From: an uncultured Candidatus Saccharibacteria bacterium
GTDB taxonomy: Bacteria > Patescibacteriota > Saccharimonadia > Saccharimonadales > Saccharimonadaceae
DNA: 64,000 nucleotides
Reading direction: 5' to 3'
Assembly: GCA_963515485.1 (NCBI GenBank)
Contig: CAUPWD010000004.1
Span: 9,716 to 73,715, forward strand
Shown here in pieces: positions 9,501 to 59,456 of this stretch. Positions within the stretch are counted from its first letter, which is position 1. Every line of letters begins with the position of its first letter. The position numbers were made by a program, and so were the translations under genes. Below the pieces are notes generated by a model. That model was given only the letters and a program-made list of their open reading frames with translations. It was not told the DNA's origin and searched no databases.

Positions 9501-10366
9501 CAGTTTCTGGTCTAGTCGATGTTTGGGAAGACGGTAATCACTTTGTGGTTCAAATCACACCAACCGCAGGTCGCTCAGAAAAAATTGAAATTTCTGAAGG
9601 TCGCAAGATTAAAATTAAAGACGGTGCTAATGTTAAAACTGGTGACGTCTTAGCTGCTAAGTCTAAGGGGCTTGAGCCAATCATCGCTCCATTTGACGGC
9701 AACGCTCAAATCGTGAACGGTGCTATTATCCTCACTGAAGGTGGTAGTGCTCCAGTTCGCATCGAAATTCCTAACGATGCCGAAATGTTGGTCAAACCAA
9801 CCGATACCGTCGAAGCTGGTGATCGTCTCACTACCGGTTCTTTGAATCTCCAAGATCAATTGAAGTTCAAGGGTGCCGAAGCTACCGCCCGTTACATCAT
9901 GAATGAAATCATGTCCGTTTATGCTGCTAACGGTGATGAAGTTTCCGCCAAGCACCTTGAAGTAATTGTCCGCCAGATGTTCAGCCGCGTCGTGATTGAC
10001 GAACCAGGCGATACTGACTTTGTGACTGGCGATATCGTCTCCCTCTCTGCTGTCGAAGATGAAAACCAAAAGCTCGAAGCCAAGGGTCGCACGCCAGCCT
10101 CTTACACCCGTATGTTGCTTGGTATTACCAAGGTCGCTATCTGGTCAGATTCCTTCCTCTCTGCTGCATCCTTCCAAGATACCACTCGTGTGCTTATCAA
10201 TGCCGCCATCTCTGGTCGTGTTGACCACCTCAATGGTCTCAAGGAAAACGTGATTATCGGTCGCAAGATTCCAGTAGGTACTGGTGTAGTCGCCCGTAAG
10301 AACGAAGAGAAAAACACAGAAGCTGAAGAATCTACTGAAGCCGAAGCAGAAATCACTCTCGAATAA
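6524..10366 (+). CDS. rpoC: DNA-directed RNA polymerase subunit beta'
   Basis: 1280 aa with the catalytic NADYDGDQMAVH motif. It starts 4 nt after the rpoB stop. Confidence 0.98.
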   Translation: MAWMDNYISASDFDSIRLCVASAEDILSWSYGEVLKPETINYRTQKPERDGLFCERIFGPVKDINPHDSKLKGVRSREAAVDKEGNLVTKSIARRERMGHIKLAAPVAHIWFMRGTPSALSLLLDLTVKSIEKVVYFASYLIINADDAKIEQVKGDLIAQHDAAIQAIKIRYSEAAKAEGANAETLANEEAKELEALDADFYSRKNILEGLKKGAVISEIDYRNLPEEYEELVTVKMGAQAIRELLEEIDLDAMIEDLSAQAEDAKGQKERKLIKRIKLLEGMKNSNIKPVDLVLTVIPVIPPDLRPMISLPGGRFATSDLNDLYRRVINRNNRLKKLLDLNAPEVIIHNEMRMLQEAVDALIDNNANHGRQASSQNGRRKLKSLSDLLKGKQGRFRQNLLGKRVDYSGRSVIVIGPELKLNECGLPKLMALELFKPFVVSWLLSHEYAANSRAASRMIDAKESVVWDALDEVIQGRYVLLNRAPSLHRLSIQAFQPKLVDGMALKLHPLVASGFNADYDGDQMAVHLPLSDEAQQEAKTLMSAASNLLKPADGSPVLSIYQDIVLGAYYLTYDKPGTESETPRAYSSVYEAEMAYESGDIALQTPIRVFAKKAIRNTTLGRVFFNEILPEDYPFDNGIQTSKHLKKVMADIFNLYGADETVRIADELKALSFEYETIASISTCKDDYPTYPEIQDFIAKGDAKTALIQDQYNQGLLTDEERYSLTVANWREIDTEISNFLKAKLATMDTDIAVMTNSGARGSVSGIKIASAEIGIMVDIFNREIELPVKSSYKKGLNTLESFIATRGARQGMVSTALRTADSGYLTRRLVDVAQDVFTVDKPNDDPGFEIFKSETEHTGIEFAQRIAGRFAAETVPGYLEADELITREVAEQIAEDENIESIKIQSVLTTKSINGVPRKAYGVDLATRKLIEPNQPIGVIAAQSLGELGTQLTLDTKHSSGVAGSGAIARGLPRVEELLEARSPKGQAWIAPVSGLVDVWEDGNHFVVQITPTAGRSEKIEISEGRKIKIKDGANVKTGDVLAAKSKGLEPIIAPFDGNAQIVNGAIILTEGGSAPVRIEIPNDAEMLVKPTDTVEAGDRLTTGSLNLQDQLKFKGAEATARYIMNEIMSVYAANGDEVSAKHLEVIVRQMFSRVVIDEPGDTDFVTGDIVSLSAVEDENQKLEAKGRTPASYTRMLLGITKVAIWSDSFLSAASFQDTTRVLINAAISGRVDHLNGLKENVIIGRKIPVGTGVVARKNEEKNTEAEESTEAEAEITLE

Positions 10367-10386
10367 GAGTAAAAATCAAACATAAA

Positions 10387-10415
10387 ATATACCCCGCATC
10401 TGGGGTATATTTTTT
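10387..10415 (+). terminator. Intrinsic terminator after rpoC
   Basis: ATATACCCCG-loop-TGGGGTATAT stem plus T5. Confidence 0.8.
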
Positions 10416-10465
10416 ATTAACGAATTATTTTTAACTTAAATTTCGATACTCTGTAATGCAATCTT

Positions 10466-10981
10466 CTACTTTTTTATGCCTAAGAAATAAAAAATTTTAT
10501 GTTGATGCGGCTCAGGAAAATCTGGATGACCAGGATCTTGTATTACTTTAGTCTCAGAGTTAATCATCTCGAATTTCGAAGTAAGGATTTCTTCAAAACC
10601 GAGCGGCAAGGAAATTTTTTTATCTAGAATATAAGTTAAACAGAGAACACCCCCACTGTTTAGACAATTAGTCATATCATTGAGACATCGAGTTGCTGTA
10701 TCGTTATCAAAAAATTGCAAGACATTCGTCGCTACCACCAAATCAAACTTGTCTTGAATCTTCCAATCTCTAAGATCAGCCTTAACCGGATAAACCAGTT
10801 TATTATTAATGGCTAACTTTTCAAGGTCTTCAATGTCTTGATCCACGGCCAGCACATCCACACCTAAATTTGCTAGAAAAACCGAATTTCGTCCAGTTCC
10901 GGCACCATAATCAAGTGCCCGAGATTTTGAATAATCCTGCAAAAACTTTGCACCAGCAACAACAATTGGCATTACTTTCAT
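10466..10981 (-). CDS. Class I SAM-dependent methyltransferase (small, 171 aa)
   Basis: Motif I LDYGAGTGRNSVFLANLG followed by DVLAVDQ. Start set at MKVMPIV (ATG 10981), 7 nt after a TATAAT box. The longer track ORF overlaps the upstream gene. Confidence 0.75.
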   Translation of the reverse strand: MKVMPIVVAGAKFLQDYSKSRALDYGAGTGRNSVFLANLGVDVLAVDQDIEDLEKLAINNKLVYPVKADLRDWKIQDKFDLVVATNVLQFFDNDTATRCLNDMTNCLNSGGVLCLTYILDKKISLPLGFEEILTSKFEMINSETKVIQDPGHPDFPEPHQHKIFYFLGIKK

Positions 10982-10997
10982 GATTAATATTATACAA

Positions 10998-11026
10998 TAA
11001 AAACCCCACTTTAATAAAAAGTGGGG
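10998..11026 (-). terminator. Intrinsic terminator between radical SAM gene and methyltransferase
   Basis: On the minus strand, an 8-bp CCCCACTT/AAGTGGGG stem with a 7-nt loop, followed by TTTTT. Confidence 0.65.
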
Positions 11027-11033
11027 AAAATTC

Positions 11034-12053
11034 TTAGCACATCCAGCATTGAGGATCCTTAGCGTAGAAATTAGAATTAAATGATCCAAAAGCAACAGCC
11101 CTACATCCACGACAGAAAGAAAGGTACTTACATTTGTTACAACCATCAATTTTCTTTATGTCTCGGTATTTATCCATCTTGTCTCCGAAAAAGACAGACT
11201 CAATTGAATCCTGAGGAAAAACGCCAACTGGGCTATCCATCCTACGACATGCATATATTTGCTTATCTTCTAATAACGTTATATGAGAGTTGCCACAATG
11301 ACATCCATCATAAATCATTTCGTCATCAGATGCATAATTAATTAGACCTTTTTCAGCAAGAAAAGGCTTCCATAGGTGGTCCTTTAAGGTAAATTTGGTA
11401 CCACTGTTGGACAACTGAGAATAAGTATCCCACATAGTACAAAGAAAATTATAATATTCGTCAGGAGTCATATTTGAATCGGTATCATTATGAGTTGGGC
11501 AATACCTAGCAAATGCACAGGTATGGACTCTCAAACTAACTAATAACCTGGTAAGCTCAGCAATTTCCTGATAGTTTATCCTTGATACTGTAGACATTAT
11601 TACGGGAGGAAGGCCGCATTCGTTCAATAAATGAATGGCTTCAATAGTAGAATCGAATGACCCATCCATACGCATTGAATCATGAGTGTCCTTAAGGCCA
11701 TCCAAAGACATCTGATATTTACTGCAGCCTGATTTTTTTAATTCTAATATTAAATCTCTTGATAAATGAAATGGGTTACCCAAAATATTGAATGGTATGT
11801 CTCGATCATAAATAAGTTTAATAATATCAAAAAACTTATTGTGAAGTATTGGGTCTCCACCTGTTAAAGCCAATGAAGGAATCTTCTTATATTTCTTACA
11901 AAATGAGATGTACTGATCTAATAATAATCGTGCATCCTCTAATGACCATTCTTTAAAGCAAACTGATTTTTCGGAATTAAAAATATAGCAATGTTTACAA
12001 CGCTGATCGCATTCATTTGTTATGTGCCATTGAAGAGCAAAAAAGCCCGCCAT
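11034..12053 (-). CDS. Radical SAM / SPASM-domain peptide maturase
   Basis: CDQRCKHC (CxxxCxxC) near the N-terminus. C-terminal auxiliary-cluster cysteines DGCHCG...ACRR...GCNKCKYLSFCRGC. Start at MAGFFALQW (ATG 12053) follows AGGAGG. Confidence 0.85.
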   Translation of the reverse strand: MAGFFALQWHITNECDQRCKHCYIFNSEKSVCFKEWSLEDARLLLDQYISFCKKYKKIPSLALTGGDPILHNKFFDIIKLIYDRDIPFNILGNPFHLSRDLILELKKSGCSKYQMSLDGLKDTHDSMRMDGSFDSTIEAIHLLNECGLPPVIMSTVSRINYQEIAELTRLLVSLRVHTCAFARYCPTHNDTDSNMTPDEYYNFLCTMWDTYSQLSNSGTKFTLKDHLWKPFLAEKGLINYASDDEMIYDGCHCGNSHITLLEDKQIYACRRMDSPVGVFPQDSIESVFFGDKMDKYRDIKKIDGCNKCKYLSFCRGCRAVAFGSFNSNFYAKDPQCWMC

Positions 12054-12081
12054 AAATAACCTCCTAAGTGTTTGTGAAAAT

Positions 12082-12105
12082 GGCTGGGTTTCTATCAACC
12101 CAGCC
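12082..12105 (-). terminator. Hairpin (possible attenuator) between precursor peptide and maturase
   Basis: An 8-bp GGCTGGGT/ACCCAGCC stem lies 8 nt after the precursor stop. It is followed by ATTTTCAC, a weak U tract. Confidence 0.45.
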
Positions 12106-12112
12106 AAAATGG

Positions 12113-12319
12113 TTAAAGATTCCCGCAAGCTCCACAGCCAGAACAACTCGTAGAGCCACCTGTGTCACAGCCTGCGGCGCCACACTCGGCGCATCCACCG
12201 TTGCAAATGCTAGAAAATTTTCCACTAGAGATCCTTCTCTGTAGAACATCCTGCACAGACACTGCGGAGGGAATAGGTTTAGGCTTTTTAGCCCATGAAT
12301 TAAAACTGCTTACCTTCAT
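12113..12319 (-). CDS. Cys-rich RiPP precursor peptide (68 aa), SCIFF/ranthipeptide-like core
   Basis: ATG 12319 follows AAGGAGG. Sequence MKVSSFNSWAKKPKPIPSAVSVQDVLQRRISSGKFSSI-CNGGCAECGAAGCDTGGSTSCSGCGACGNL has 7 Cys in the last 30 residues. It lies directly upstream of the rSAM/SPASM gene. Confidence 0.75.
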   Translation of the reverse strand: MKVSSFNSWAKKPKPIPSAVSVQDVLQRRISSGKFSSICNGGCAECGAAGCDTGGSTSCSGCGACGNL

Positions 12320-12445
12320 AAAAACCTCCTTTAAGGTAAAAATGAATAGATACATGGATGTAATATCACATTTATAACAATTGTCAAATATTAGGGAATG
12401 GTATTTTTTGATACAGAGAAAAATTTTTAATAGTATAATAAACCT

Positions 12446-13669
12446 ATGCAAACCTATGTCGATTCCATTCAGCAGGCCGCCTACATCTTTCCGCCTCTGG
12501 CCCTAGCTTTTACTATTCCATATCTAATTTATAACTACAAAAAATATGGCTCTATCTGGAGTATGCGTATTTGGATCGTCTATTCTTTTATTTTGTATAT
12601 GCTTTGCACCTATTGTTTGGTAATTCTACCGCTCCCATCTCCTGAAAAAGCCGCTACCTTACATAATCATCAGATGCAACTTCTGCCGTTTAACTTTATC
12701 TTCGATATTTTGAAGCACGCCAAGTTGCAGCTAGTAAATCCCAAATCCTACCTCACGATTATCAATAACCCCGCCTTCTTCTCTACAATTTTCAATGTAT
12801 TTATGACTCTGCCCTTTGGCTTTTATCTCAAGTACTACTTTAAGAATAACCTCAAACAGGTCGCCATTAAATCCTTCTTTCTCTCACTTTTCTTTGAGCT
12901 AACTCAACTTAGCGGACTCTATTTTATCTATTCCGGCAACTATCGCCTCTTTGACGTCGACGACCTAATCACTAATACTCTCGGCGGTATTCTCGGCTTT
13001 GCTTTGGCCACTATGTTAGCCAAATATCTCCCGACCAGAGAACAGATCGACGAAAAAAGCCTCGAGCGCAGTGATAAAATTTCACTTCTGCGTCGTCTCG
13101 TGGCTATGGGTTTTGATTTTATCTTAGGCGGTTTCTTTACTATCTTCTTTGGTGATATTGTACTAAAATTAATCCATCTCGAATCTGATTTCTTTACTAT
13201 TCAAATCCCATTCATTTTTTATCTCACCATTTCGACCATCATTTTACGCGGCCGCACGATTGGCTTTTTCATGACCAACCTCAAGGTCGAATCTAATCAT
13301 AAAGTCGGAATCTTGCGAACTTATCTACGTTATTTCCTACGTTACCTCTTTTTCTATCTTCAATTCATCACTTTGCCGCTCGCTTTAGTTAATGTACTGA
13401 ATCTCGCCCTCATCAATAATATCCTTAGCCATGAAACGATTACTTATATCGCTCTGGGCCTTCTCGTAATTTTCGGTATTTATTACCTCGTCACCTTGTT
13501 ATTCGTCGCTGTGCGCAAAAGTTTATTCTATGAAAATCTTTCGGAAACCCACCTGGTAAATACCACGAAAAAAGTTAAAAATTCTAAACCAACCGCAAAA
13601 ATCACACAAAATAACCATCCAATAGTCTCAAAAAATGACGACCAGGACGATGAGGCCGAAGAAGTCTAA
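12446..13669 (+). CDS. Membrane protein, N-terminal VanZ-like plus C-terminal RDD-like domain
   Basis: Multi-TM protein. The VanZ-type segment is FELTQLSG...FDVDDLITNTLGGILGF. The later RRLVAMGFDFILGGFF segment resembles an RDD domain. Confidence 0.6.
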   Translation: MQTYVDSIQQAAYIFPPLALAFTIPYLIYNYKKYGSIWSMRIWIVYSFILYMLCTYCLVILPLPSPEKAATLHNHQMQLLPFNFIFDILKHAKLQLVNPKSYLTIINNPAFFSTIFNVFMTLPFGFYLKYYFKNNLKQVAIKSFFLSLFFELTQLSGLYFIYSGNYRLFDVDDLITNTLGGILGFALATMLAKYLPTREQIDEKSLERSDKISLLRRLVAMGFDFILGGFFTIFFGDIVLKLIHLESDFFTIQIPFIFYLTISTIILRGRTIGFFMTNLKVESNHKVGILRTYLRYFLRYLFFYLQFITLPLALVNVLNLALINNILSHETITYIALGLLVIFGIYYLVTLLFVAVRKSLFYENLSETHLVNTTKKVKNSKPTAKITQNNHPIVSKNDDQDDEAEEV

Positions 13670-13677
13670 TTCCGACC

Positions 13678-13706
13678 TTGATAATCTGTGCCATTTGTGG
13701 TAAAAT
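13678..13706 (+). promoter_or_regulatory. Promoter of rplC operon (TTGATA-17-TGgTAAAAT)
   Basis: TTGATA at 13678-13683, a 17-nt spacer, and an extended -10 TGGTAAAAT. It is followed by a structured leader of about 155 nt. Confidence 0.65.
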
Positions 13707-13868
13707 CATCTTTGTAAGTTTATCAAGGTGACATTTGAAGAACTAGACAATTAAGGAAAGCCACTTTTTTCCAACTGTAATATTTTTTAATATAGGCCAA
13801 ACAGAGAAAAAAGTCGGAACTGCCTTACTGTCTAGCTAATAGAGTGTCTCCGTAAAGGAAAGGAAAAG

Positions 13869-14486
13869 ATGAAAGTCATCCTCGGCACCAAAATTGGTAT
13901 GACCCAAATCATCAGCGAAGATGGTTTAGTGACCCCTGTTACTATCCTTCAAGCTGGACCAGCCACAGTGACTCAGATAAAAACCGTCGAAACCGATGGT
14001 TATAATGCTGTGCAGCTCGGTTACGGTAAGGGTAAGAATCTGAGCAAGTCGGTATCAGCTCACGTCAAAAAAGCTGGAGAAACATTAAGTCCAAAAATCT
14101 TAAAGGAATTTCGTACGGATTCCACCACAGATTTCAAGTTAGGCGACGTATTTACAGTCGATAATTTTGAAATTGGAGACAAGGTTGCGGTTACTGGTAT
14201 TTCGAAGGGTAAAGGATTTGCTGGTACTGTCAAACGTTGGAACTTCCAAGAGTCACGCAATACCCACGGCTTCAAGGGCGATATTCGTAAAGTCGGTTCT
14301 ATCGGCTCGATGTATCCTCAAAAAGTTTTCAAGGGTAAGCGCATGCCAGGTCGCATGGGCCACGATCAAGTTACTGTGAAGAATCTTGTCGTTGCTTATA
14401 TCGATAAGGAAAACAACATCCTCGGTCTTAAGGGCGCCGTCCCAGGACCAAAGAAAGGTATCGTAACTGTGGAGGGAAAGGAGTAA
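13869..14486 (+). CDS. rplC: 50S ribosomal protein L3 (uL3)
   Basis: The MKVILGTKIGMTQ N-terminus and the operon order both fit uL3. Confidence 0.95.
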   Translation: MKVILGTKIGMTQIISEDGLVTPVTILQAGPATVTQIKTVETDGYNAVQLGYGKGKNLSKSVSAHVKKAGETLSPKILKEFRTDSTTDFKLGDVFTVDNFEIGDKVAVTGISKGKGFAGTVKRWNFQESRNTHGFKGDIRKVGSIGSMYPQKVFKGKRMPGRMGHDQVTVKNLVVAYIDKENNILGLKGAVPGPKKGIVTVEGKE

Positions 14487-35233: not shown

Positions 35234-37390
35234 ATGAGCCAAACAGAAAAATCCAAAAAACCAGTTATTGTTGCCCAAATTATGGGTAAATGGATTGGCG
35301 GCGGCGTCGAATCTGTGATTATGAATTACTATCGTCACCTCGATCACACCAAAGTCCAATTTGATTTTATCTGTGACGAAGATTCTACTCGCATCCCATA
35401 TGACGAAATTAAAAAATTCGGTGGTCGCGTCTTCCTGGTGCCAAAATACCAAAAACTACCTCAGTATCTCAAGGCTCTCGAAGATTTATTCCGCAAAAAC
35501 CAATATCGCATCGTTCACTCCAACGTAAATACTCTCTCAGTTTTTCCACTTTACGCCGCGAAAAAAGCTGGGGTACCTATTCGCATTTCTCACAGTCATT
35601 CCACCAGTAACGCTCGCGAATGGAAACGCAATATTATCAAAAATATTTTACGTCCATTTAGCAAAAAATACGCCACAGATTATTTTGCTTGCTCCGAACT
35701 AGCAGGACGCTATCTTTTTGGCAATAAAACTTTCGACCAGGGTAAAGTAAAAATCATCCATAATGCCATCGATCTCGATAAATTCAAGTTTGATCCAGAA
35801 GCCCGCAAAAAACTTCGTAAAGAACTAGATATAAAAGAAAAAACCGTCGTTATCGGACATGTCGGACGTTTCGTCAAGCAAAAAAATCACGATTTTCTGA
35901 TTGATGTATTTAAGGAATATCATACTAAAAACCCAGACTCTAAACTTCTCCTCATCGGCACCGGCCCACTCGAAGAAAAAACTAAAGCCAAAGTCGAAAA
36001 ACTTAATCTCTCAGATCCCGTAATATTCCTAGGTCAACGCGAAGATACCAATAAGCTTTACTCCGTGATGGATATTTTCTGCTTGCCAAGCCTATACGAA
36101 GGCTTACCAGTTGTCGGCGTAGAATCTCAATCCGCAGGACTACCGATCATTTTTTCGAATGGAGTGACACGTGAGATTATCATCTCTAAAAATGCAAAAA
36201 TAGTCGAAGCTCAAGAGGTAAAGGCTTATATTAAAAAAATAGATAAAATTATTCAAGGTAATAGACAAAGCGTTAAACAAAGAACCACCGCAACTATTAG
36301 TGAGAATATGAGTATACAAAAAGAAGCTATAAAACTTGAGAAACTATATTGTAAGCCCATAAAGATACTGCACCTCATTAGTACTAGTTTATTTTCTGGG
36401 GCTGAAAATGTTGCATGTCAAATTATTAACCTATTTAAGGATGACACCAACTACGACATGAAGTATTGTGCAGTTGTCGGAAAAAATAAACCCGCCCTGG
36501 AAATTAGAAAAATCCCAGTTTTAGAGTTAAACAAGTTTAATATTCATGATATAAAAAAGGCAATTAGCGAGTATAATCCAGATATAATTCATGCACATGA
36601 CCCAAAATCAACTATAGTATCTGTTATTGCCTCAAGGGGAAAGAAAATAATATCCCATATACATTCCAACCATCGGTATATGCGAAAAATTAGCATAAAG
36701 TCACTTATTTTTCATTTTTACATAGAAAGGATGATATCCGATATTATCTGGGTTTCCGACTCCGCATTAAACGATTATATTTTCAATAAAATAATTAATA
36801 AAAAAATTAATTCTATCATACTCCGTAATGTGGTAAATCCATATGAACTTAAAAAAATTGCTGGAAATGATAAAAATAAATATTCATTTGATCTAATATT
36901 TTTAGGCAGACTGGAAGACGTAAAAGATCCATTGCGGTTCATAAGGCTTGTTAGGCAAATCAAACAACTTAGAAATATCAAAGTCGCCATGGTCGGAGAT
37001 GGAACGATGCGTAATGAGGTAGAGCAAGAAATACACAAATATTCATTAGACAAGAATATAATGATGTTTGGAAATCAAATTAATCCATATAAAATACTAC
37101 TAAACTCAAAACTCTTGCTAATTACTTCAAAGTACGAGGGAACACCAATGAACGCCCTAGAAGCAATAGCCTGTAATATACCGGTCGTATCTACGCCAGT
37201 GGATGGACTCTTGGAAATAATAGATAAAAAATATCTATGCACCAGCGATAGAGATTTTGTAAAAGTAATTATTGGCTTACTAGAAGATCAAGAAAAAGTA
37301 AACAAGTACAAAGAGGAATTAAAACTAATAGACTCAACTATAAACAACATCGAAAACTATAAGGCTAATATAGAAAAACTTTATAATTAA
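35234..37390 (+). CDS. Tandem-domain glycosyltransferase (two complete GT1/GT4-type modules fused, 718 aa)
   Basis: There are two E-x7-E motifs (EGLPVVGVESQ at about aa 295 and EGTPMNALEAI at about aa 635). The second module begins at about KILHLISTSLFSGAEN. Confidence 0.8.
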   Translation: MSQTEKSKKPVIVAQIMGKWIGGGVESVIMNYYRHLDHTKVQFDFICDEDSTRIPYDEIKKFGGRVFLVPKYQKLPQYLKALEDLFRKNQYRIVHSNVNTLSVFPLYAAKKAGVPIRISHSHSTSNAREWKRNIIKNILRPFSKKYATDYFACSELAGRYLFGNKTFDQGKVKIIHNAIDLDKFKFDPEARKKLRKELDIKEKTVVIGHVGRFVKQKNHDFLIDVFKEYHTKNPDSKLLLIGTGPLEEKTKAKVEKLNLSDPVIFLGQREDTNKLYSVMDIFCLPSLYEGLPVVGVESQSAGLPIIFSNGVTREIIISKNAKIVEAQEVKAYIKKIDKIIQGNRQSVKQRTTATISENMSIQKEAIKLEKLYCKPIKILHLISTSLFSGAENVACQIINLFKDDTNYDMKYCAVVGKNKPALEIRKIPVLELNKFNIHDIKKAISEYNPDIIHAHDPKSTIVSVIASRGKKIISHIHSNHRYMRKISIKSLIFHFYIERMISDIIWVSDSALNDYIFNKIINKKINSIILRNVVNPYELKKIAGNDKNKYSFDLIFLGRLEDVKDPLRFIRLVRQIKQLRNIKVAMVGDGTMRNEVEQEIHKYSLDKNIMMFGNQINPYKILLNSKLLLITSKYEGTPMNALEAIACNIPVVSTPVDGLLEIIDKKYLCTSDRDFVKVIIGLLEDQEKVNKYKEELKLIDSTINNIENYKANIEKLYN

Positions 37391-37391
37391 A

Positions 37392-38507
37392 ATGGATTTA
37401 AAAATAACTGAAGAGAAGAATATTGGCAACAAACTATATTTTATAGGGATATTATTTTTGCAGATGTCTCACACTTGTATGAATATAGTATTTTTGTCGA
37501 GATATCTAGTTACTATAAAATTATTAGGTATTTTACTGCTTATATGTTATTTTGTAATTAATCTAAAGTATAAAAATATAAACAAAAATAAGGTAATTTT
37601 ATTATCTCTTGTAACCATTAGTGGATTAATAAGCTATATTTTGACCACAGACACAACTATAATCGAATTGGTTATCATGGTAATGGCTTCAATAGGATTG
37701 GACTTTAATAAGGTAGTAAAGAAAGATTTTATAGCGAAGATACTTATACTTATACTTATAGTATCCTGTTACTATTTAGGATATACAACGTCTGATTTTA
37801 CGATTCTCAGAAATGGAGAGTTAAGAAGTTCATTTGGGTTTTACCATCCAAATATTTTTGGATTATACGTAATGATATTATTCTTAGAATATATCTACAT
37901 AAAAAGGATTAAAAATATTAAACTAATCTTAGCCGCGACATTTTTAGCAGCATCAATAGATATTACAGCAAATTCAAGAAGTGCAGTTCTTGGAATAATT
38001 GTAGCAGCATTGCTTCTCGTTTGGGATAAAATTACCGCAAAAATATTATACACAAAAGTAATTTCATTTATTCTTAAAAATTTATATGTAATATTGTCAA
38101 TACTATCCATAGGATTAACAATATTGTTTATCAATAACAATGATATGGCCATATGGATTAATAAGATATTATCCGAACGGCTGCTTATACAGGCAGAATT
38201 TTTAGAAAAATATACATTAAACTTCTTTGGAAATGCAATTGACTACACAAAAACATTAGATAATGGATATATTAGATATTTATTAAATTACGGAATTTTT
38301 GCGGCCATACTTTTTGCAGCCATAAGTTATAGTAGTATTAAAAAAAGCATAAAAAATAAAAATCTATATATTACAATATATATGTTAATTTTTCTAATCT
38401 ATATGATGAGCGAACAATCGATATTCTACATATACTTCAATATATTTCTTCTTTACGCTTTTACGGAACCTGACAATAAAAATAAGGGAATAGAAACTAA
38501 TGCCTAA
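37392..38507 (+). CDS. Wzy-like polysaccharide polymerase / O-antigen ligase-family membrane protein
   Basis: 371 aa with about 10 TM segments, very AT-rich. The position in a wzx/wzy-type locus fits. The family call is by context. Confidence 0.55.
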   Translation: MDLKITEEKNIGNKLYFIGILFLQMSHTCMNIVFLSRYLVTIKLLGILLLICYFVINLKYKNINKNKVILLSLVTISGLISYILTTDTTIIELVIMVMASIGLDFNKVVKKDFIAKILILILIVSCYYLGYTTSDFTILRNGELRSSFGFYHPNIFGLYVMILFLEYIYIKRIKNIKLILAATFLAASIDITANSRSAVLGIIVAALLLVWDKITAKILYTKVISFILKNLYVILSILSIGLTILFINNNDMAIWINKILSERLLIQAEFLEKYTLNFFGNAIDYTKTLDNGYIRYLLNYGIFAAILFAAISYSSIKKSIKNKNLYITIYMLIFLIYMMSEQSIFYIYFNIFLLYAFTEPDNKNKGIETNA

Positions 38508-38806
38508 AATATCTATAATTATCCCAGCATATAACGCAGAAAAATACATTAATGAATGTATTGATTCTATCTTGAAAAATAGTAAGGAATCTTTGAATCA
38601 AACTGAAATCATCGTTATTAATGATGGGTCTACCGATCGTACTTTAAAAAAACTTGAGAAATATAAAGAGAATAACATCATACATGTATATACAACAAAA
38701 AATCAAGGAGTTTCCGCTGCACGTAATTATGGCATAAAGCTTGCAAAGGGAGACTGGATCACTTTTATTGATGCGGATGATAAAGTAACTGAAGGATTTG
38801 TTGATC
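38500..38806 (+). repeat. 307-nt segment identical to 39449-39755
   Basis: By eye the nucleotide sequence is identical from the ATG to GTTGATC. Confidence 0.9.
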
Positions 38807-39456
38807 AAAATATAAATGAACTTAACAATAGTGCACTTATAAAGACAACGATATCGACCAACAATTACAATAACCAAATCAAAGACAAAACTACTATCTC
38901 CATTCAACATCTTTTATCAAAATTAACCTACGGGGAAATGCCTGCCTTTATCTTCTCATACTTCTTTAAAAAAGACATCGTAAAACAAATACATTTTAAT
39001 AAAAACATTCACTTCATGGAAGATTCACTATTTTTGATTGAATACCTAAACAAAACAAAAGAAAAATATAATGTAGAAACAAATCTAGCATCTTATTTAT
39101 ATAATAATAACCAATGTTCTGCATCAAATAATTCAAAAAATATAATAAGAAATATTTTGGACGCAGAACAAGTTTTTCTATTAAGATTCAAAGACCAGAA
39201 TATTGATAGACGAAGAGCACAAGCTTATAAACTAAAAATATATGAAAATCAAATATCAAAGATAGATAATCAAACTGATTTTATTAATCTAAAAACCAAT
39301 AAAGATATTAAACTATTATTCCAAAAAGAAATTAAGAATAATAAAACTACACTTTTTTGGAAAGTATATCTCGTGTCAATTTTAAAAATACCCTACATGA
39401 TGTTTAATCTATATAAAATAATGAGAAATCTTATAAAAGAATTAAAGCATGCCTAA
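38500..39456 (+). CDS. GT2-family glycosyltransferase
   Basis: ISIIIPAYNAEKYI...VINDGSTD...FIDADD motifs (DxD). Confidence 0.88.
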   Translation: MPKISIIIPAYNAEKYINECIDSILKNSKESLNQTEIIVINDGSTDRTLKKLEKYKENNIIHVYTTKNQGVSAARNYGIKLAKGDWITFIDADDKVTEGFVDQNINELNNSALIKTTISTNNYNNQIKDKTTISIQHLLSKLTYGEMPAFIFSYFFKKDIVKQIHFNKNIHFMEDSLFLIEYLNKTKEKYNVETNLASYLYNNNQCSASNNSKNIIRNILDAEQVFLLRFKDQNIDRRRAQAYKLKIYENQISKIDNQTDFINLKTNKDIKLLFQKEIKNNKTTLFWKVYLVSILKIPYMMFNLYKIMRNLIKELKHA

Positions 39457-39755
39457 AATATCTATAATTATCCCAGCATATAACGCAGAAAAATACATTA
39501 ATGAATGTATTGATTCTATCTTGAAAAATAGTAAGGAATCTTTGAATCAAACTGAAATCATCGTTATTAATGATGGGTCTACCGATCGTACTTTAAAAAA
39601 ACTTGAGAAATATAAAGAGAATAACATCATACATGTATATACAACAAAAAATCAAGGAGTTTCCGCTGCACGTAATTATGGCATAAAGCTTGCAAAGGGA
39701 GACTGGATCACTTTTATTGATGCGGATGATAAAGTAACTGAAGGATTTGTTGATC
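39449..39755 (+). repeat. 307-nt segment identical to 38500-38806
   Basis: By eye the nucleotide sequence is identical from the ATG to GTTGATC. Confidence 0.9.
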
Positions 39756-40420
39756 TACTAAGATTGAATACAAATAAAGAAACATCCCTTGTTATATTGA
39801 ACTATCAAGAAGGTATTATCTTAGATAAAAAAGACCTGATCAGAAAAACTCTTTCTACGCAAAATTTTCTTGCCGCACCATTTCTTAAGCTTTATTCGAC
39901 AAACTTTTTGAAAAAAAATCAAATCTTATTTGACACCAAAATTATTATTGGCGAAGATTTATTGTTTAATCTTTCTGTTATCCTTAGAAGTAAAAAAATA
40001 GAAGCCACTAATATAAAGTATTACCTCTATAGACAAAACAACGCTTCAGCAACTAAAACTTTTAATCCAAGGTTAATCGAATCAGATAAAAATTTCTATA
40101 TACATTTAACCCAATTATTTAATTCTCAAAAACATAACCAGGAACTATATAATAGGCTTATAAATTGCGAAAAAAGTAAAGCTATATTATCATTAATTAC
40201 GAGAATCTCTTTTGTCGATAGTTTTAATGAAGCAAAAATCCAATATCAAAATATCGATATATTTTTCTACAAACCAAAATATAGTTATTTAACTACAACA
40301 CAAAAGATGATTTTATACCTGCTGTTGAATAAATTATATTTTTCACTATTTATAATCATGAAATTTAGAACATCTATCGGAAAAATGAGAAATAAAAAAG
40401 AAAGGTTCATTAAACTATGA
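39449..40420 (+). CDS. GT2-family glycosyltransferase (paralog)
   Basis: The N-terminal 102 aa are the same as in the preceding gene. The C-terminal part is divergent. Confidence 0.88.
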   Translation: MPKISIIIPAYNAEKYINECIDSILKNSKESLNQTEIIVINDGSTDRTLKKLEKYKENNIIHVYTTKNQGVSAARNYGIKLAKGDWITFIDADDKVTEGFVDLLRLNTNKETSLVILNYQEGIILDKKDLIRKTLSTQNFLAAPFLKLYSTNFLKKNQILFDTKIIIGEDLLFNLSVILRSKKIEATNIKYYLYRQNNASATKTFNPRLIESDKNFYIHLTQLFNSQKHNQELYNRLINCEKSKAILSLITRISFVDSFNEAKIQYQNIDIFFYKPKYSYLTTTQKMILYLLLNKLYFSLFIIMKFRTSIGKMRNKKERFIKL

Positions 40421-41571
40421 AGAATAACAAAATAGGAATCATTACATTCCATAATTCAAACAACTGTGGTTCAATGCTAGAATCTTTTGCTATGAACCGA
40501 ATCGTAGACTCCATAGGATTTGATTCGGAAATTATCAACTATAGTTCAGAAGGACAGCAACAATTATATAAATCTTTATTTCCATGGAATAGTCTAAAAA
40601 ATTTTATTAAAAACATTCTTTTATTGCCACATAAAAAGCGACTAGATTGTAACAATAGAAAATATCAAGAATTTAAACGAAAATATATGAGTTTAAACTC
40701 TCAACAGATTCAAACCGAAGAACAAGTTCGTAAACTAAAATATGATGCAGTAATCGCAGGCAGCGATCAAATATGGAATGTGACGATTGAAGACTACAAT
40801 GATGTGTATTTTTTGCCATGGGTTCAGGATGGATTAAGGATAGCTTATGCGCCAAGTTTTGGAGCAAAAAATCCTTCTAAGTATGATTCAAAAAGAATCA
40901 CGGAATACAGTGATTTCCTAAATAGATTCGATGCTTTATCGATTAGAGAAAATAATGGACAGAAATGGATTAAGGAAATTAGTGGGAGAGACGCTAAGAT
41001 TGTCCTAGACCCAACTTTACTATTGACTATAGACGAGTATCGAAGGCTGGAACGTAAAAATATGAAGTTACCAGAAAAATATATCTTTTTCTATAGTCCA
41101 AGCTTTGATTTAGGTATCTGCGAATTCGTCAAACAGGTAAGCAAAAAATACAACCTTCCAGTAATTACTTGGAGCGCTAAGCCATTTTATGTAAAAAATG
41201 TTTGGAGGTATGGATTTAAATTACCAGATTATGAAGATCCGTCCACCTATTTAACTTTAATCAAAAATGCAACATTGGTATTTACAACTTCTTTTCATGG
41301 AACAATTTTCTCAAGTTTATATCACAAAAAATTCTTTGTTCTTAAAAACGGCGGAATGTATGGCAATGATGATCGTGTGATTACCCTAGTAGATAAATTA
41401 AAGCTGGGTAAACACCTCATTGGGTATGATTTTAAAAAAGAATTTAATTATCTAGCTGAAACTGATTATTCTGAATTCGATATGACATTAGAAGTCGAGA
41501 AGAAAAAATCTCTAGATTTTTTGAAGAATAGCTTGTCTCATTTAAAGGGGAAAAATGAAAAATCTAAGTAA
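40417..41571 (+). CDS. Polysaccharide pyruvyl transferase family protein
   Basis: The IGIITFHNSNNCGSMLESFAM N-terminus and later SFHGTIFS are typical of this family. Confidence 0.7.
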   Translation: MKNNKIGIITFHNSNNCGSMLESFAMNRIVDSIGFDSEIINYSSEGQQQLYKSLFPWNSLKNFIKNILLLPHKKRLDCNNRKYQEFKRKYMSLNSQQIQTEEQVRKLKYDAVIAGSDQIWNVTIEDYNDVYFLPWVQDGLRIAYAPSFGAKNPSKYDSKRITEYSDFLNRFDALSIRENNGQKWIKEISGRDAKIVLDPTLLLTIDEYRRLERKNMKLPEKYIFFYSPSFDLGICEFVKQVSKKYNLPVITWSAKPFYVKNVWRYGFKLPDYEDPSTYLTLIKNATLVFTTSFHGTIFSSLYHKKFFVLKNGGMYGNDDRVITLVDKLKLGKHLIGYDFKKEFNYLAETDYSEFDMTLEVEKKKSLDFLKNSLSHLKGKNEKSK

Positions 41572-42994
41572 AAATCTTATATATAATATAATCTACCAGG
41601 TATTGTTATATATTATTCCATTTATATTAACTCCATATCTTTCTCGCACTCTTGGTGTAACACAGATTGGTGAATATTCTTATACATATTCAATCGTTTA
41701 TTATTTTATGCTATTCACTCTTTTAGGAATAAACAACTATGGCGTAAGAAAAATATCAAAGACAAAACGCAAAAAAGACATACTAGGAGAAACATTCTCT
41801 TCTATATATGGCCTACAATTATTTCTTGGCCTAATTTCGTTAATTGTATATAACTTAGTATCAGTCGTCTTTTTAAGTACTCACTATACTATATTATTAA
41901 TACATAATTTATTTCTAATTTCCGCAATAGTTGACATTAACTGGTTTTTCTTTGGTATCGAAAAATTTAACATCACAGTTACTAGAAACGCAGTAATTAA
42001 AATAATATCGACACTTCTAATCTTTGTGTTGGTAAAAAATCCAGATTCTATCCTGACCTATACCATGATTATGGCCGGAAGTACGTTACTGAGTCAATTA
42101 TACTTAGTTGCCATACTGCATAAATATATAGTTTTTCGTCCTCTAAATATTTTTAAATCGATAAAGCTTCACTTTATAAAATGCCTAGTATTATTCATTC
42201 CAGTTATTGCTTACAGTGTTTATCGAGTTATGGACAAAACAATGATTGGTGGTATTGTTTCTACTACTGAGCTTGGATATTATGAGAATGCTGAGAAGAT
42301 AATTAATATCCCAATTGGAATTCTCACGGCAATCGGAACGGTTATGCTCCCGTTTATATCTAAGCAAACTGAAAAAAATCAGTCAACTATGAATGATAAA
42401 AAAAATGGCGTTCTATACAGGATGTTTCAGGTATGTTTTATGATCATGTTTCCGATGGCGTTTATATTGTTTGCAATAGCAAAAGATTTTACTTCTATAT
42501 ATTTTGGTCCTGGTTTTGAAAAAAGTGGTGATATTCTTATGTTACTCTCCTCCACAATTATTTTCGCCACAGTTGCTAATGTAATCCGGACAAACTATCT
42601 AATTCCTAATGAGAAAGATAGAATCTATGTTTCCTCGACGATTGTAGGAGCAGTTGTGAATTTGATTCTAAATCTAATCTTTATAAAAAGCTTTGGGGCA
42701 ATTGGTGCTTGTATTGGGACAATTGCCGCAGAGGCTTCAGTAATGTTTTACCAAATTATCGCCACTAAAGATAACATTAATTATAAAAAAGTTTTTCTAT
42801 CAATTTTTGCGCTAATAATTAAATGCGTAGTGACCACATCGATTTGTATAGTATCAGTAAGTTTGCTTAAAGCTCAAGGGATTCTTAAAATTATCCTCGA
42901 ACTGAGCCTATTTGCTGCTCTGTATCTATTGATTAATATTAAACTGTTGAAAAAAATAATAAACAGAGGAGAAGATAATATTTGGGAGATATGA
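41555..42994 (+). CDS. Wzx-type polysaccharide flippase (MOP superfamily)
   Basis: 479 aa with about 12-14 TM segments. N-terminal NIIYQVLLYIIPFILTPYLSRTLG is typical of polysaccharide biosynthesis (PST) proteins. Confidence 0.75.
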   Translation: MKNLSKNLIYNIIYQVLLYIIPFILTPYLSRTLGVTQIGEYSYTYSIVYYFMLFTLLGINNYGVRKISKTKRKKDILGETFSSIYGLQLFLGLISLIVYNLVSVVFLSTHYTILLIHNLFLISAIVDINWFFFGIEKFNITVTRNAVIKIISTLLIFVLVKNPDSILTYTMIMAGSTLLSQLYLVAILHKYIVFRPLNIFKSIKLHFIKCLVLFIPVIAYSVYRVMDKTMIGGIVSTTELGYYENAEKIINIPIGILTAIGTVMLPFISKQTEKNQSTMNDKKNGVLYRMFQVCFMIMFPMAFILFAIAKDFTSIYFGPGFEKSGDILMLLSSTIIFATVANVIRTNYLIPNEKDRIYVSSTIVGAVVNLILNLIFIKSFGAIGACIGTIAAEASVMFYQIIATKDNINYKKVFLSIFALIIKCVVTTSICIVSVSLLKAQGILKIILELSLFAALYLLINIKLLKKIINRGEDNIWEI

Positions 42995-44223
42995 AAATGC
43001 CAGGAGACAGTTTAATAAGAAAAAAATACGATTCAATAGACTGTATAGAAGATTTAATCCCACTAATCTCGGATTTAGATGATGGCGAGACTCCATGGCT
43101 TGAATTTAAGGCTATAAACAATCAAGAATGTAAAAAAGAGAAAGATTTTCTATTACACCAAAAATCACTTTTAGCAAAAGAAATTTGTGCTTTTTTAAAT
43201 ACATCAGATGGAATTGTTGTATGGGGAGTTGACTATTCTGTGTCTGACGGAATTAAAATCCGTAATGATTACAATGGAAACTTATATGAGGTACTAGATT
43301 CATGTATCCAAACAATAGTTGAACCAGCTCCTTCTGGAATCGATTTTAAAAGCATAGAAAAAAATAATAAAAAAGCTTTGTTGATTTTTGTACCAAAAAG
43401 TAATATGATGCCGCATCGCGTCTGGGGTGGTGCAGATAGTCAAATTAAACGCAACTATTACGTAAAATCTGGTACAAATAGTGTTGCAATAAACGAAAGC
43501 ATAGTCCGATTATTATACCGTTCCGATGGCTACGTTCCACGAATTTCAACTTTTATAGAACCTAAGTTTATATCTAGTAATCTTATGTGTCTGGAGATAT
43601 TAGCCAACCCTGATAGTATATATTATATTGATAAATACTATACCAAAGGAGAGGTAATTTTATTAGATAAAAATGGTGATCCCATATTAACTGAGTTAGA
43701 TACAAATGCATGGATTGAGATAGAGAAAAATAAACTAGTACCTACAATTGCAATATATCCATCTAATAGTCCTATCCAGCTTTATAATATGAGCGTAGAG
43801 CCAATTGACCTTTCTAATACCGGATATTTTACTCAGGGTCCGAAAAATATACGTGGATTTGTAGCTGATAATGTTCTGAATATAGAAAGGGAAGGCTTCA
43901 ATAATGTAAAATTCATTGTAACAAGGTCCTATTTTGCATGTAATAAGGTGTCAATTACTATTGATAAAAGACTTTACATTCTAAATACTTTTTCACATAT
44001 AGGATATTTAGTTGATAATGGCAGAAGCAACCTTTGCTTTGTAAGAAAAGAAATTTTTAGAAAAATAGAAAGTGACTATAATATAAAAATTTATGTTTTA
44101 AATACGTATGTTGATAATAACATTGTAAATGATTATGATTATAATGGTATAGACCCATGTAATAATGGGAAGATAAGTGTTAGCTTCATAAAATATATAC
44201 TCAATAATATTAAAGATCTATAG
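42982..44223 (+). CDS. AlbA_2 (Schlafen-type) domain protein with unknown ~280-aa C-terminal region
   Basis: ETPWLEFKAIN...ICAFLNTSDGIVVWGVD matches my recollection of the ES..LEFK / AFANT.GG...GV pattern. The start overlaps the wzx stop by 13 nt. Confidence 0.5.
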   Translation: MGDMKMPGDSLIRKKYDSIDCIEDLIPLISDLDDGETPWLEFKAINNQECKKEKDFLLHQKSLLAKEICAFLNTSDGIVVWGVDYSVSDGIKIRNDYNGNLYEVLDSCIQTIVEPAPSGIDFKSIEKNNKKALLIFVPKSNMMPHRVWGGADSQIKRNYYVKSGTNSVAINESIVRLLYRSDGYVPRISTFIEPKFISSNLMCLEILANPDSIYYIDKYYTKGEVILLDKNGDPILTELDTNAWIEIEKNKLVPTIAIYPSNSPIQLYNMSVEPIDLSNTGYFTQGPKNIRGFVADNVLNIEREGFNNVKFIVTRSYFACNKVSITIDKRLYILNTFSHIGYLVDNGRSNLCFVRKEIFRKIESDYNIKIYVLNTYVDNNIVNDYDYNGIDPCNNGKISVSFIKYILNNIKDL

Positions 44224-44244
44224 AAGTAGATAGAGTTTTTGCTG

Positions 44245-44265
44245 TACCCACAGGGGTATATTTTT
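44245..44265 (+). terminator. Intrinsic terminator
   Basis: TACCC-loop-GGGTA stem plus T5. Confidence 0.6.
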
Positions 44266-44418
44266 CTACATTTTATCAAAAGCCAAAAATTAGGTTAAAC
44301 TGGAACCACGAAATCCCAAAAAATGAAATCATTATGAATAAATAAAAAAACACTTCAACCTACAGGAATAGGAATTGTTTTTGTCTATCCAAAAAACTAC
44401 TCTCACGTATAGGTATTA

Positions 44419-45642
44419 TTATTTAGTAAGTCCGTTTAACTTTTCTGAAAAACATTGAATACCAAGAGTATTAATTACAGAAATATTCGCATTGGTCTTC
44501 GTTAGGTTATTGTTTTTTAATAATTTATTTACATTCTTCTCTAATTCTGTATCAAGAACATTTAATTTATTTTGTTCAATAGTAACAAATGAATACGCAC
44601 TACACCACCCCGATATTTTCTCTGAAATTTTAGTTACTGCTTCAAAAAAAGAAATTTTCTTTCTTTTATTTTGTCTTATTAATTCTGTTATGCTTTCTGT
44701 TATATTTCTATAAGACTCATCAGCAATATATACTTTGTCGCTCCGAAACATTATTCCTAAAAAAGTTTTATCTTGTAAAGGACCGATAACCGAGTGCTTT
44801 TCTTTAGTTTTTGAATTACCAAGTTTGTATAGTTTTAAACCTATTCCCGAAAGAAAATTGTTTGCATCATCGAAGGCCTGCCTTGCTTTATTTTCATCCG
44901 CAGTTAAAATGATAATATCATCAGCATAACGAACCATCATATAATCCTTCGATTCCATAAAAGCATCAAAGTCGGAAAGATAAATATTTGAAAAAAGAGG
45001 AGATAATACATCCCCTTGCGCTATACCATTAACATTATCAGGTGTATATTCTTTTTTTACTTTATTTTTATAATCTAATTTAGATGATGCATCAATGTCA
45101 TTAAAAATGATTTCACGAATCAATTCATTAATCGAGCAGTCTGGAAGAGGTTTTAGAACTTTTTCTAATAAATCTTGCTTATTTATATTATTAAAAAAAT
45201 GAATAATATCCGTCTTACAACAATATCTATGGCCATCTCTTCTATATTTCTGCACAGTCTTTATTGCCTTCTCAACACCACCACTAGGCATAAAAGCAAA
45301 ACTTACGTTATTATTTATATTATACATTTGATTAAAGGTCTTTACGGTCGCATTAAAAATGGACCTCTGAACGATCCTATCTTGAATGGATGAAATCTTA
45401 ATCTCTCTAAAGTCGCCTTTATTCTTAGGTATAAGATGCAATCGAAGTTTACCAAAGTGATAACTACCAGACTTTAGTTTTGCCTGAATAGTCTTTAGAT
45501 GTTCGCTTAAATTAACTTCAAAATTTTTTATTGTTACTCCGTCAGATCCATACGAATACGGATTCTTTTTTATCTCTAGCCAGGCTTTCTTAAGCGATCT
45601 CAGATTACTGATACGATTAATTAATAATGTTTTCTTACTCAT
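44419..45642 (-). CDS. Reverse transcriptase (RNA-directed DNA polymerase), stand-alone, 407 aa
   Basis: RT motifs are LIPKNKGDFREIKISSIQDRIVQRS (1/2), GIAQGDVLSPLFSNIYL (4), VRYADDIIIL (5, YADD) and LKLYKL...FLGIMF (6/7). I see no endonuclease or other fused domain. Confidence 0.85.
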   Translation of the reverse strand: MSKKTLLINRISNLRSLKKAWLEIKKNPYSYGSDGVTIKNFEVNLSEHLKTIQAKLKSGSYHFGKLRLHLIPKNKGDFREIKISSIQDRIVQRSIFNATVKTFNQMYNINNNVSFAFMPSGGVEKAIKTVQKYRRDGHRYCCKTDIIHFFNNINKQDLLEKVLKPLPDCSINELIREIIFNDIDASSKLDYKNKVKKEYTPDNVNGIAQGDVLSPLFSNIYLSDFDAFMESKDYMMVRYADDIIILTADENKARQAFDDANNFLSGIGLKLYKLGNSKTKEKHSVIGPLQDKTFLGIMFRSDKVYIADESYRNITESITELIRQNKRKKISFFEAVTKISEKISGWCSAYSFVTIEQNKLNVLDTELEKNVNKLLKNNNLTKTNANISVINTLGIQCFSEKLNGLTK

Positions 45643-59355: not shown

Positions 59356-59456
59356 GGCTTATTTTACAAAATCTATAAAAAATGTTATAATAAAATAGTA
59401 TTTGGTTGATGAAACTTTAAATGTACATTACTAATTTGAAAGGGTGGTGATTATGT

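Follow-up and report, generated by a model that had tools for sequence, protein, structure and literature searches.

A candidate peptide-modification cassette of the ACGX-system family in a Candidatus Saccharibacteria genome

What kind of product is encoded where a small cysteine-rich peptide gene precedes a radical S-adenosylmethionine (SAM)/SPASM enzyme gene in the small genome of an uncultured Candidatus Saccharibacteria bacterium? The question is raised by a 64,000-nucleotide stretch of DNA, referred to here as the window (contig CAUPWD010000004.1 of assembly GCA_963515485.1, positions 9,716 to 73,715 of the forward strand), in which a peptide of 68 amino acids (aa), a 339-aa radical-SAM/SPASM enzyme and a SAM-dependent methyltransferase are encoded one after another on the minus strand. 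A preliminary description of the locus proposed a precursor peptide and its maturase, resembling the SCIFF-type ranthipeptides. The pairing of precursor and maturase was borne out by the comparisons below, and the family was found to be a different one. With high confidence, the locus is assigned to the ACGX-system family with a three-gene architecture of precursor, radical-SAM/SPASM enzyme and TehB-like methyltransferase. Judged by its genes, the cassette falls into a distinct branch of that family, termed type B here. The composite reading, a three-gene peptide-modification cassette that works by cysteine-oxidation chemistry, is placed just on the probable side of even.

The family assignment is carried by the enzyme. 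Its best NCBIfam family is TIGR04340 ("radical SAM/SPASM domain protein, ACGX system"; 399.7 bits, E 1e-119), with a match spanning 338 of the 341 model positions and lying 205 bits above the next family. SbtM (194.5 bits), AhbD (110) and NirJ2 (100) follow, the thioether-forming families StsB and PapB reach 64 and 52.5 bits (PapB cut-off 340), the MftC model gives 56 bits, and the SCIFF maturase is not found in the best 25 NCBIfam families. With 54 bits on the anSME model against 399.7 on TIGR04340, the enzyme does not group with sulfatase maturases, an outcome that the preliminary description had named as speaking against its reading.

The residues expected of such an enzyme are in place. 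The Pfam Radical_SAM domain is matched at E 1e-17 and the SAM-cluster motif reads C15-x3-C19-x2-C22, while the Pfam SPASM model stays below threshold on the window enzyme and is reached by most homologues. Eight cysteines of the SPASM region (C251, C253, C269, C305, C308, C314, C317 and C336) are invariant or nearly so in the family, forming the conserved patterns C253-x10-G-x4-C269 and C305-x2-C308-x5-C314-x2-C317 followed by C336. Every invariant residue of a 23-sequence family alignment is retained by the window enzyme, including the SAM-cluster and SPASM cysteines, and the enzyme is predicted to carry a SAM cluster together with the cysteine set for two auxiliary Fe-S clusters. The AlphaFold (AF2) model (pLDDT 90.5) adopts a SPASM radical-SAM fold without an N-terminal leader-binding (RRE) domain, the SAM motif beginning at residue 15. 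The closest structures by Foldseek are SuiB, anSME, BlsE, SkfB, CteB, TigE and PqqE at 13-19% identity, supporting the fold without telling the chemistries apart, and a sequence search of the PDB returned distant matches alone, to SkfB and BlsE.

The precursor peptide ends in CNGGCAECGAAGCDTGGSTSCSGCGACGNL and contains seven cysteines, at residues 39, 43, 46, 51, 59, 62 and 65. Its leader (residues 1 to ~38) features FNSW...SVQDVL, and its core (residues 39-68, nucleotides 12205-12116), rich in Cys, Gly, Ala and Ser, holds all seven cysteines with three Gly-Cys pairs (G42-C43, G50-C51 and G61-C62). The core is divergent, and its C-terminal ACGN is the sole ACGX unit. Uninterrupted by stop codons up to its terminal TAA, the 68-aa frame offers no in-frame selenocysteine codon. 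It is nested in a 112-aa open reading frame (ORF) with a TTG start, and the identical 68-aa gene is predicted by public gene callers. Such cysteine density is rare in the window, where seven Cys fall within 30 residues in just 2 of the 591 six-frame segments that reach 40 aa. The second of these (59420-59605, minus strand) is regarded as a chance occurrence, because it is missing a start codon and lies antisense to a DUF1771 gene. Among six strain-level copies, the peptide gene varies at five sites, all synonymous, and is under purifying selection.

Homology to peptides of other species was also found. A profile built from 17 type B peptides of other species recovers the window peptide at E 3.6e-6, the next window segment standing at 1.4, and a profile of type B leaders alone recovers it at E 1.9e-6, a signal that comes mainly from other Saccharibacteria peptides. 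With a leader profile of all 54 distinct leaders, mostly from Bacteroidales, the window peptide ranks first of 1,291 segments at E 0.66. A profile search of 5.8 billion proteins returned 67 related peptide clusters, every one unnamed or "hypothetical", and the type B precursor has no curated model and no name in the databases searched.

The family to which the cassette belongs is large. More than 2,600 database proteins are homologous to the enzyme at E below 1e-20, many of them named "ACGX system", some of these from Saccharibacteria, Paceibacterota and Patescibacteria; one family member is mis-annotated as MftC. In a scan with one genome per species, at least 591 species possess an enzyme relative, and on viral contigs 5 relatives were found in 2.9 million. 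Locus-level counts refer to the 80 best loci from other genomes, the enzyme tree comprising 81 sequences. These loci derive from Saccharibacteria, other lineages of the Candidate Phyla Radiation (CPR), a metagenome-assembled genome (MAG) of Micrarchaeota, Methanobrevibacter and other archaea, Bacteroidales, Clostridia and others. A cysteine-rich small ORF lies just upstream of the enzyme gene on the same strand in 76 of the 80, so that the small ORF is conserved beside homologous enzymes; in two of the four remaining loci, the contig ends less than ~110 nt upstream.

A neighbour-joining tree splits the 81 enzymes exactly into two clades, types A and B, and the precursor type changes together with the enzyme clade. 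Type A enzymes score 572-593 bits on TIGR04340 and type B enzymes 395-470, several of the latter scoring higher on SbtM than the window enzyme does, up to 237 bits. Type A peptides consist of tandem repeats, such as ACGSD or ACGSACGAGDK. Type B peptides carry a short non-repeat Cys/Gly-rich core that no curated model matched, with the consensus SCNCGGGCNGEC (...SCGxGSCNCGGGCNGEC... in most CPR lineages). Type B is distributed mainly among CPR bacteria, with one DPANN archaeon and some Clostridia. Since type B is common in CPR genomes, finding such a cassette there is not surprising, and the earlier impression of a locus out of place in a CPR-type genome is not upheld.

The gene neighbourhoods differ as well. 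In type A, a divergently transcribed HxlR/RrpB-like regulator occurs at 38 loci, and directly downstream of the enzyme stands at least one of a PIG3-type quinone-oxidoreductase-like protein (34 loci), a nitroreductase (16) or a PNPOx-ferredoxin fusion (16). At many type A loci (L012, L014, L018, L022-L026, L030-L033, L036, L038, L040-L045 and others), the redox genes are tightly packed in what resembles a redox-stress operon. The type A nitroreductase was considered as a SagB-type azoline dehydrogenase and rejected, NCBIfam giving a generic NADPH nitroreductase match alone. In type B, a TehB-like methyltransferase gene is found directly downstream of the enzyme at 22 of 24 loci, compared with 0 of 57 for type A.

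The elements of the window cassette, listed in the direction of transcription, are as follows.

12435..12462, minus strand: promoter-like site TCGACA-16-TATTAT upstream of the peptide gene, with 10 of 12 consensus matches
12325..12332, minus strand: Shine-Dalgarno sequence AAAGGAGG of the peptide gene, 5 nt ahead of its ATG, read from the sequence
12113..12319, minus strand: precursor peptide gene, 68 aa plus stop, ATG at 12319 and TAA stop at 12115-12113
12082..12105, minus strand: hairpin in the gap separating peptide and maturase genes, with AUUUU after a 10-bp stem, -19.9 kcal/mol
12060..12065, minus strand: Shine-Dalgarno sequence AGGAGG of the radical-SAM gene, 7 nt upstream of it, read from the sequence
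11034..12053, minus strand: radical-SAM/SPASM enzyme gene, 339 aa, TIGR04340 family, placed in the type B clade
11004..11026, minus strand: intrinsic-terminator-like hairpin after the radical-SAM gene, 9-bp stem plus TTTTT, -14.5 kcal/mol, z = -3.7
10989..10994, minus strand: TATAAT hexamer separated by 7 nt from the downstream methyltransferase ATG, without a Shine-Dalgarno sequence, read from the sequence
10466..10981, minus strand: gene of the TehB-like class I SAM methyltransferase, 171 aa, ATG at 10981, Pfam TehB match
10384..10413, minus strand: 12-bp terminator hairpin separating the methyltransferase gene from the convergent rpoC gene, -17.1 kcal/mol, z = -4.7

All parts of the cassette were verified at these positions on the minus strand by inspection of the sequence and its ORFs, and the components named in the preliminary description (the 68-aa seven-cysteine ORF with its ribosome-binding site, the hairpin, the 339-aa radical-SAM protein, the terminator and the methyltransferase with its TATAAT-N7-ATG start) were each found. 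The order on the minus strand is peptide, hairpin, enzyme, terminator and methyltransferase, with a gap of 59 nt between the peptide and enzyme genes. The hairpin in this gap (z = -3.7; 0 of 200 shuffles fold as well) is likely a partial terminator or an mRNA-stabilising element. In a test of 20 type B and 37 type A loci, an intergenic fold with z below -2 was present in the corresponding gap in all of the former and 76% of the latter, the loci without a stable fold being mostly archaeal. The promoter-like site upstream of the peptide gene lies within a 126-bp divergent intergenic region common to the peptide gene and a VanZ-like gene; such sites are no commoner in the region than expected from shuffles, and the site is therefore weak evidence. 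The TATAAT hexamer, with no Shine-Dalgarno sequence behind it, may give rise to a leaderless methyltransferase transcript. An Rfam scan of 10000-14000 detected no known RNA element, just sub-threshold matches at the terminator hairpins.

Does the methyltransferase belong to the cassette? The preliminary description left this in doubt because of the intervening terminator, a doubt that gives way to the presence of a TehB-like methyltransferase next to the enzyme at 22 of the 24 type B loci across many phyla, which makes it part of the cassette. The protein matches Pfam TehB (E 3e-14, 53 bits vs a gathering score of 20.4) and falls short of the NCBIfam TehB equivalog models, on which it scores 50-65 bits against cut-offs of 218-303 bits; it is thus TehB-like rather than TehB. 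The type B methyltransferases share a SAM-binding motif and a C-terminal GHPxFxxPHxH motif, GHPxFPxPHxH in the window, and many CPR loci feature a second methyltransferase of ~250 aa. In four type B loci from Clostridia (L046, L048, L051 and L071), the methyltransferase ORF is truncated or split (129-157 aa, or 129 + 76 aa), which suggests frameshifts, decay or assembly errors in these MAGs.

What, then, would the cassette do? In the favoured reading, the peptide would be made in excess over the enzyme by means of the intergenic hairpin, since a strong hairpin there would attenuate read-through or stabilise the short transcript; a high peptide-to-enzyme ratio is common in modified-peptide operons. 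The enzyme would recognise the conserved leader (N-x-W ... S-[AV]-Q-x-V-L) directly, without a separate leader-binding domain, and would use its SAM cluster and two auxiliary Fe-S clusters to modify the closely spaced cysteines of the Gly/Ala/Ser-rich core. Abstraction of a Cys beta-hydrogen would be followed by oxidation or heterocyclisation, as with SbtM and anSME, after which the methyltransferase would methylate the product, with a sulfur or a carboxylate as a plausible acceptor. Oxidation or heterocyclisation of Cys is favoured because SbtM is the closest characterised relative, because the enzyme resembles anSME in its size, its missing leader-binding domain and its eight cysteines, and because the core offers three Gly-Cys pairs. 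SbtM forms a thio(seleno)oxazole at Gly-Cys via abstraction of the Cys beta-hydrogen and has been described as confined to Geobacter and Desulfobacteria strains (PMC9204691). Taken by itself, the proposed Cys-oxidation chemistry is a tentative choice that falls somewhat short of an even chance.

Several observations weigh against this reading. The score of the enzyme on TIGR04340 lies 0.3 bits under the curated cut-off of 400, and the window peptide shows no match at E up to 10 to TIGR04341, the model of the ACGX-repeat peptide (cut-off 28 bits); canonical peptides from Bacteroidales and Clostridium reached 32-35 bits on it in that run. With every Saccharibacteria sequence removed, the type B leader profile does not recover the window peptide; given this and the E of 0.66 above, leader homology outside Saccharibacteria amounts to a motif seen by eye, the pattern N-x-W ... 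S-[AV]-Q-x-V-L being shared there by eye and not statistically. The methyltransferase gene of the window is set apart from the enzyme gene by a terminator and its own promoter-like site, and strains differ much more in the methyltransferase than in the enzyme. Compared with the contig of a second strain (L002), the peptide-enzyme block is 97-100% identical, equal to the ribosomal-protein genes and above rpoC; across window positions 10350-12450 aligned with three such contigs (L002, L001 and L086), the methyltransferase shows an identity of 81-82% (of its 172 codons, 32-42 differ synonymously and 19-25 non-synonymously), and the step in identity is sharp and placed at the intergenic terminator 11026-11004. 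Type A cores display a recurrent C-x3-[DE] or C-x2-D pattern. SbtM chemistry is not simply transferable either, with family scores of ~190-240 bits against the cut-off of 350 and an extra domain of ~196 aa in SbtM. Literature searches on ACGX/TIGR04340 radical SAM enzymes, on thiooxazole radical-SAM enzymes and on RiPPs (ribosomally synthesised and post-translationally modified peptides) of CPR, Patescibacteria or Saccharibacteria returned nothing on the ACGX family, and no product or function for any of its members.

In the leading alternative, the product is a thioether-cross-linked peptide of ranthipeptide- or sactipeptide-like kind: Cys sulfurs would be joined to carbons of nearby Asn, Asp, Glu, Thr or Ser, and the resulting polycyclic peptide would then be methylated. 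This is a serious contender, nearly as likely as Cys oxidation, if likewise short of an even chance. The Cys-rich core offers possible acceptors in N40, E45, D52, T53, T57 and N67, the type B consensus SCNCGGGCNGEC is counted in its favour, and the type A repeats with C-x3-[DE] or C-x2-D resemble PapB substrates such as freyrasin, which have C-x3-D motifs. The fold is as close to CteB, SkfB and SuiB as it is to anSME. Against these stand the low scores on thioether-forming families (PapB 52 and StsB 64 bits, with the SCIFF maturase outside the best 25), the lack of a SCIFF precursor match, and an enzyme devoid of an RRE domain. The enzyme also has eight conserved SPASM-region cysteines compared with the seven of CteB, Tte1186 and QhpD (PMC10352776), and the cassette is accompanied by none of the usual protease, exporter or immunity genes.

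It is very unlikely that the enzyme acts on a non-peptide substrate, like the tetrapyrrole enzymes AhbD and NirJ or a sulfatase maturase, with the small ORF encoding an unrelated or unmodified metal-binding peptide. The AhbD, NirJ2 and NirJ1 models do respond with 91-110 bits, but these values are far under their cut-offs of 500-650 bits, Cys-rich peptide genes adjoin the enzyme in both Bacteria and Archaea, the peptide type co-varies with the enzyme clade, and no tetrapyrrole or sulfatase genes lie near the cassette. Membership in the true SCIFF group, with a six-cysteine-type precursor and a CteB/Tte1186-type maturase, can practically be dismissed: NGGCAEC in the window peptide is superficially like the SCIFF GGCGEC motif named in the preliminary description, but the SCIFF models of NCBIfam find no match in the peptide even at E up to 10, and the 339-aa enzyme lacks the N-terminal domain and belongs to another family. 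The ranthipeptide-like assignment of the preliminary description is accordingly not sustained by a ranking in which TIGR04340 comes first and SbtM second.

Returning to the Cys-oxidation reading, the neighbourhoods give a hint of function. Neighbour-gene clustering revealed no protease, transporter or immunity gene conserved with type A or type B cassettes, so the product may serve redox, metal or metalloid handling within the cell, instead of being secreted as an antibiotic. The redox-stress-like operon of type A likewise suggests a redox role for the family and not an antibiotic one. The boldest version of the reading is speculative and, as a whole, improbable: type B would be an unnamed class of modified peptides, enriched in CPR and also present in a DPANN archaeon, whose cysteines become thiooxazoles or oxidised heterocycles capped by the methyltransferase, yielding an intracellular redox, metal or metalloid peptide or cofactor and not an antibiotic. 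If true, such a role would parallel the redox-stress context of type A with its HxlR/RrpB-like, PIG3-type, nitroreductase and PNPOx-ferredoxin genes.

The position of the cassette is not conserved in the way the preliminary description supposed. The arrangement of rpoC, cassette, VanZ-like gene and rplC is common to contigs of the same species alone (L001, L002 and L086; 92-95% nucleotide identity), and other Saccharibacteria have the cassette at other sites. In another Saccharibacteria genome (L090/L091, 5795-6754), a peptide, radical-SAM and methyltransferase cassette adjoins metK, encoding SAM synthetase, and its 50-aa precursor gene was left uncalled by NCBI annotation. Between 10000 and 14000 of the window, rpoC is directly followed by the cassette and then by rplC-rplD, with no rpsL, rpsG, fusA, tuf or rpsJ in between. 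A horizontally acquired island was considered and rejected, the cassette GC of 0.35-0.37 being within one standard deviation of the window genes (mean 0.40, standard deviation 0.06), though rpoC and the ribosomal-protein genes have a higher GC. The VanZ-like neighbour, encoded at 12446-13669 on the plus strand and divergent from the peptide gene, was rejected as an immunity or export gene, as it is present in the same-species contigs alone. It is a membrane protein of 407 aa whose VanZ domain (residues 48-190) is N-terminal and whose C-terminal half has no assignment.

Elsewhere in the window, 35234-45642 forms a low-GC island (genes of 0.26-0.35 GC compared with the window mean of 0.40) that encodes one GT4 and two GT2 glycosyltransferases, a polysaccharide pyruvyl transferase and a Wzx-like flippase. 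These glycan genes are followed by a Schlafen/AlbA_2-domain protein (42982-44223) and, on the opposite strand, a reverse transcriptase (44419-45642), which together could be a retron- or defence-type element, or else a group II intron.

The wider relevance of the cassette lies in its family, an ACGX radical-SAM family with members in at least 591 bacterial and archaeal species, for which no published product or function was found. Type B in particular is poorly handled by annotation, with an enzyme just under the cut-off, a precursor that has no model and is often uncalled, and a methyltransferase that is named generically. The three-gene cassette is kept across many small-genome CPR and DPANN lineages, with a peptide-enzyme block as conserved between strains as the ribosomal-protein genes, and thus probably serves a physiological role. 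The cassette owes its moderate interest to its chemistry and to the lack of conserved export genes. Its small size would permit direct heterologous expression, so that the question of whether a thiooxazole, a thioether or something else is formed could be answered quickly.

Among known systems, SCIFF, PapB-type and SbtM do not include the cassette by the criteria that define them. Mycofactocin (MftA/MftC with dehydrogenases) is a conceptual analogue alone, combining a small peptide and a SPASM radical-SAM enzyme with redox enzymes and no export genes; the MftC model gives 56 bits, and redox-enzyme genes accompany type A cassettes, not the one in the window. The SCIFF peptides and ranthipeptides (CteB, Tte1186 and PapB/freyrasin) similarly couple a radical-SAM/SPASM enzyme to a Cys-rich precursor, and the CteB structure aligns with a TM-score of ~0.74, but the window system differs in having no SCIFF match, no RRE, a PapB score of 52 bits, eight SPASM cysteines instead of seven and other accessory genes. 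anSME is alike in size, in the absence of a leader-binding domain, in two auxiliary clusters with the full Cys set (TM 0.74/0.69) and in acting on the Cys beta-carbon. It is unlike in score (54 bits), in identity (17-18%) and in substrate, that of the window enzyme being a dedicated small peptide and not a sulfatase.

SbtM (TIGR04082) is the second-best family, the whole 339-aa enzyme aligning to SbtM positions 197-515, and it acts on a peptide whose Cys has small residues on either side, comparable with the three Gly-Cys pairs of the window core. In contrast to SbtM, the window enzyme scores 194.5 bits against the 350-bit cut-off and is devoid of the ~196-aa N-terminal region, and the window peptide has no selenocysteine codon. 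The closest system is the ACGX system itself (TIGR04340 with TIGR04341), which was set by comparative genomics and for which no experimental study was found. In common with it are the best family of the enzyme by more than 200 bits over a full-length match, the peptide gene immediately upstream on the same strand with an intergenic hairpin, and, by eye, the leader motif ...[ST]-[AV]-Q-x-[VY]-[LIM]. The window cassette departs from it in a core that is not a tandem ACGX repeat and has no TIGR04341 match, in an enzyme from a separate clade scoring 395-470 bits there compared with 572-593 for canonical members, and in an accessory TehB-like methyltransferase in place of the HxlR regulator with a quinone-reductase-like, nitroreductase or PNPOx-ferredoxin protein. 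The ACGX family is thus computationally defined and experimentally uncharacterised, and type B is a divergent, so far unnamed branch of it.

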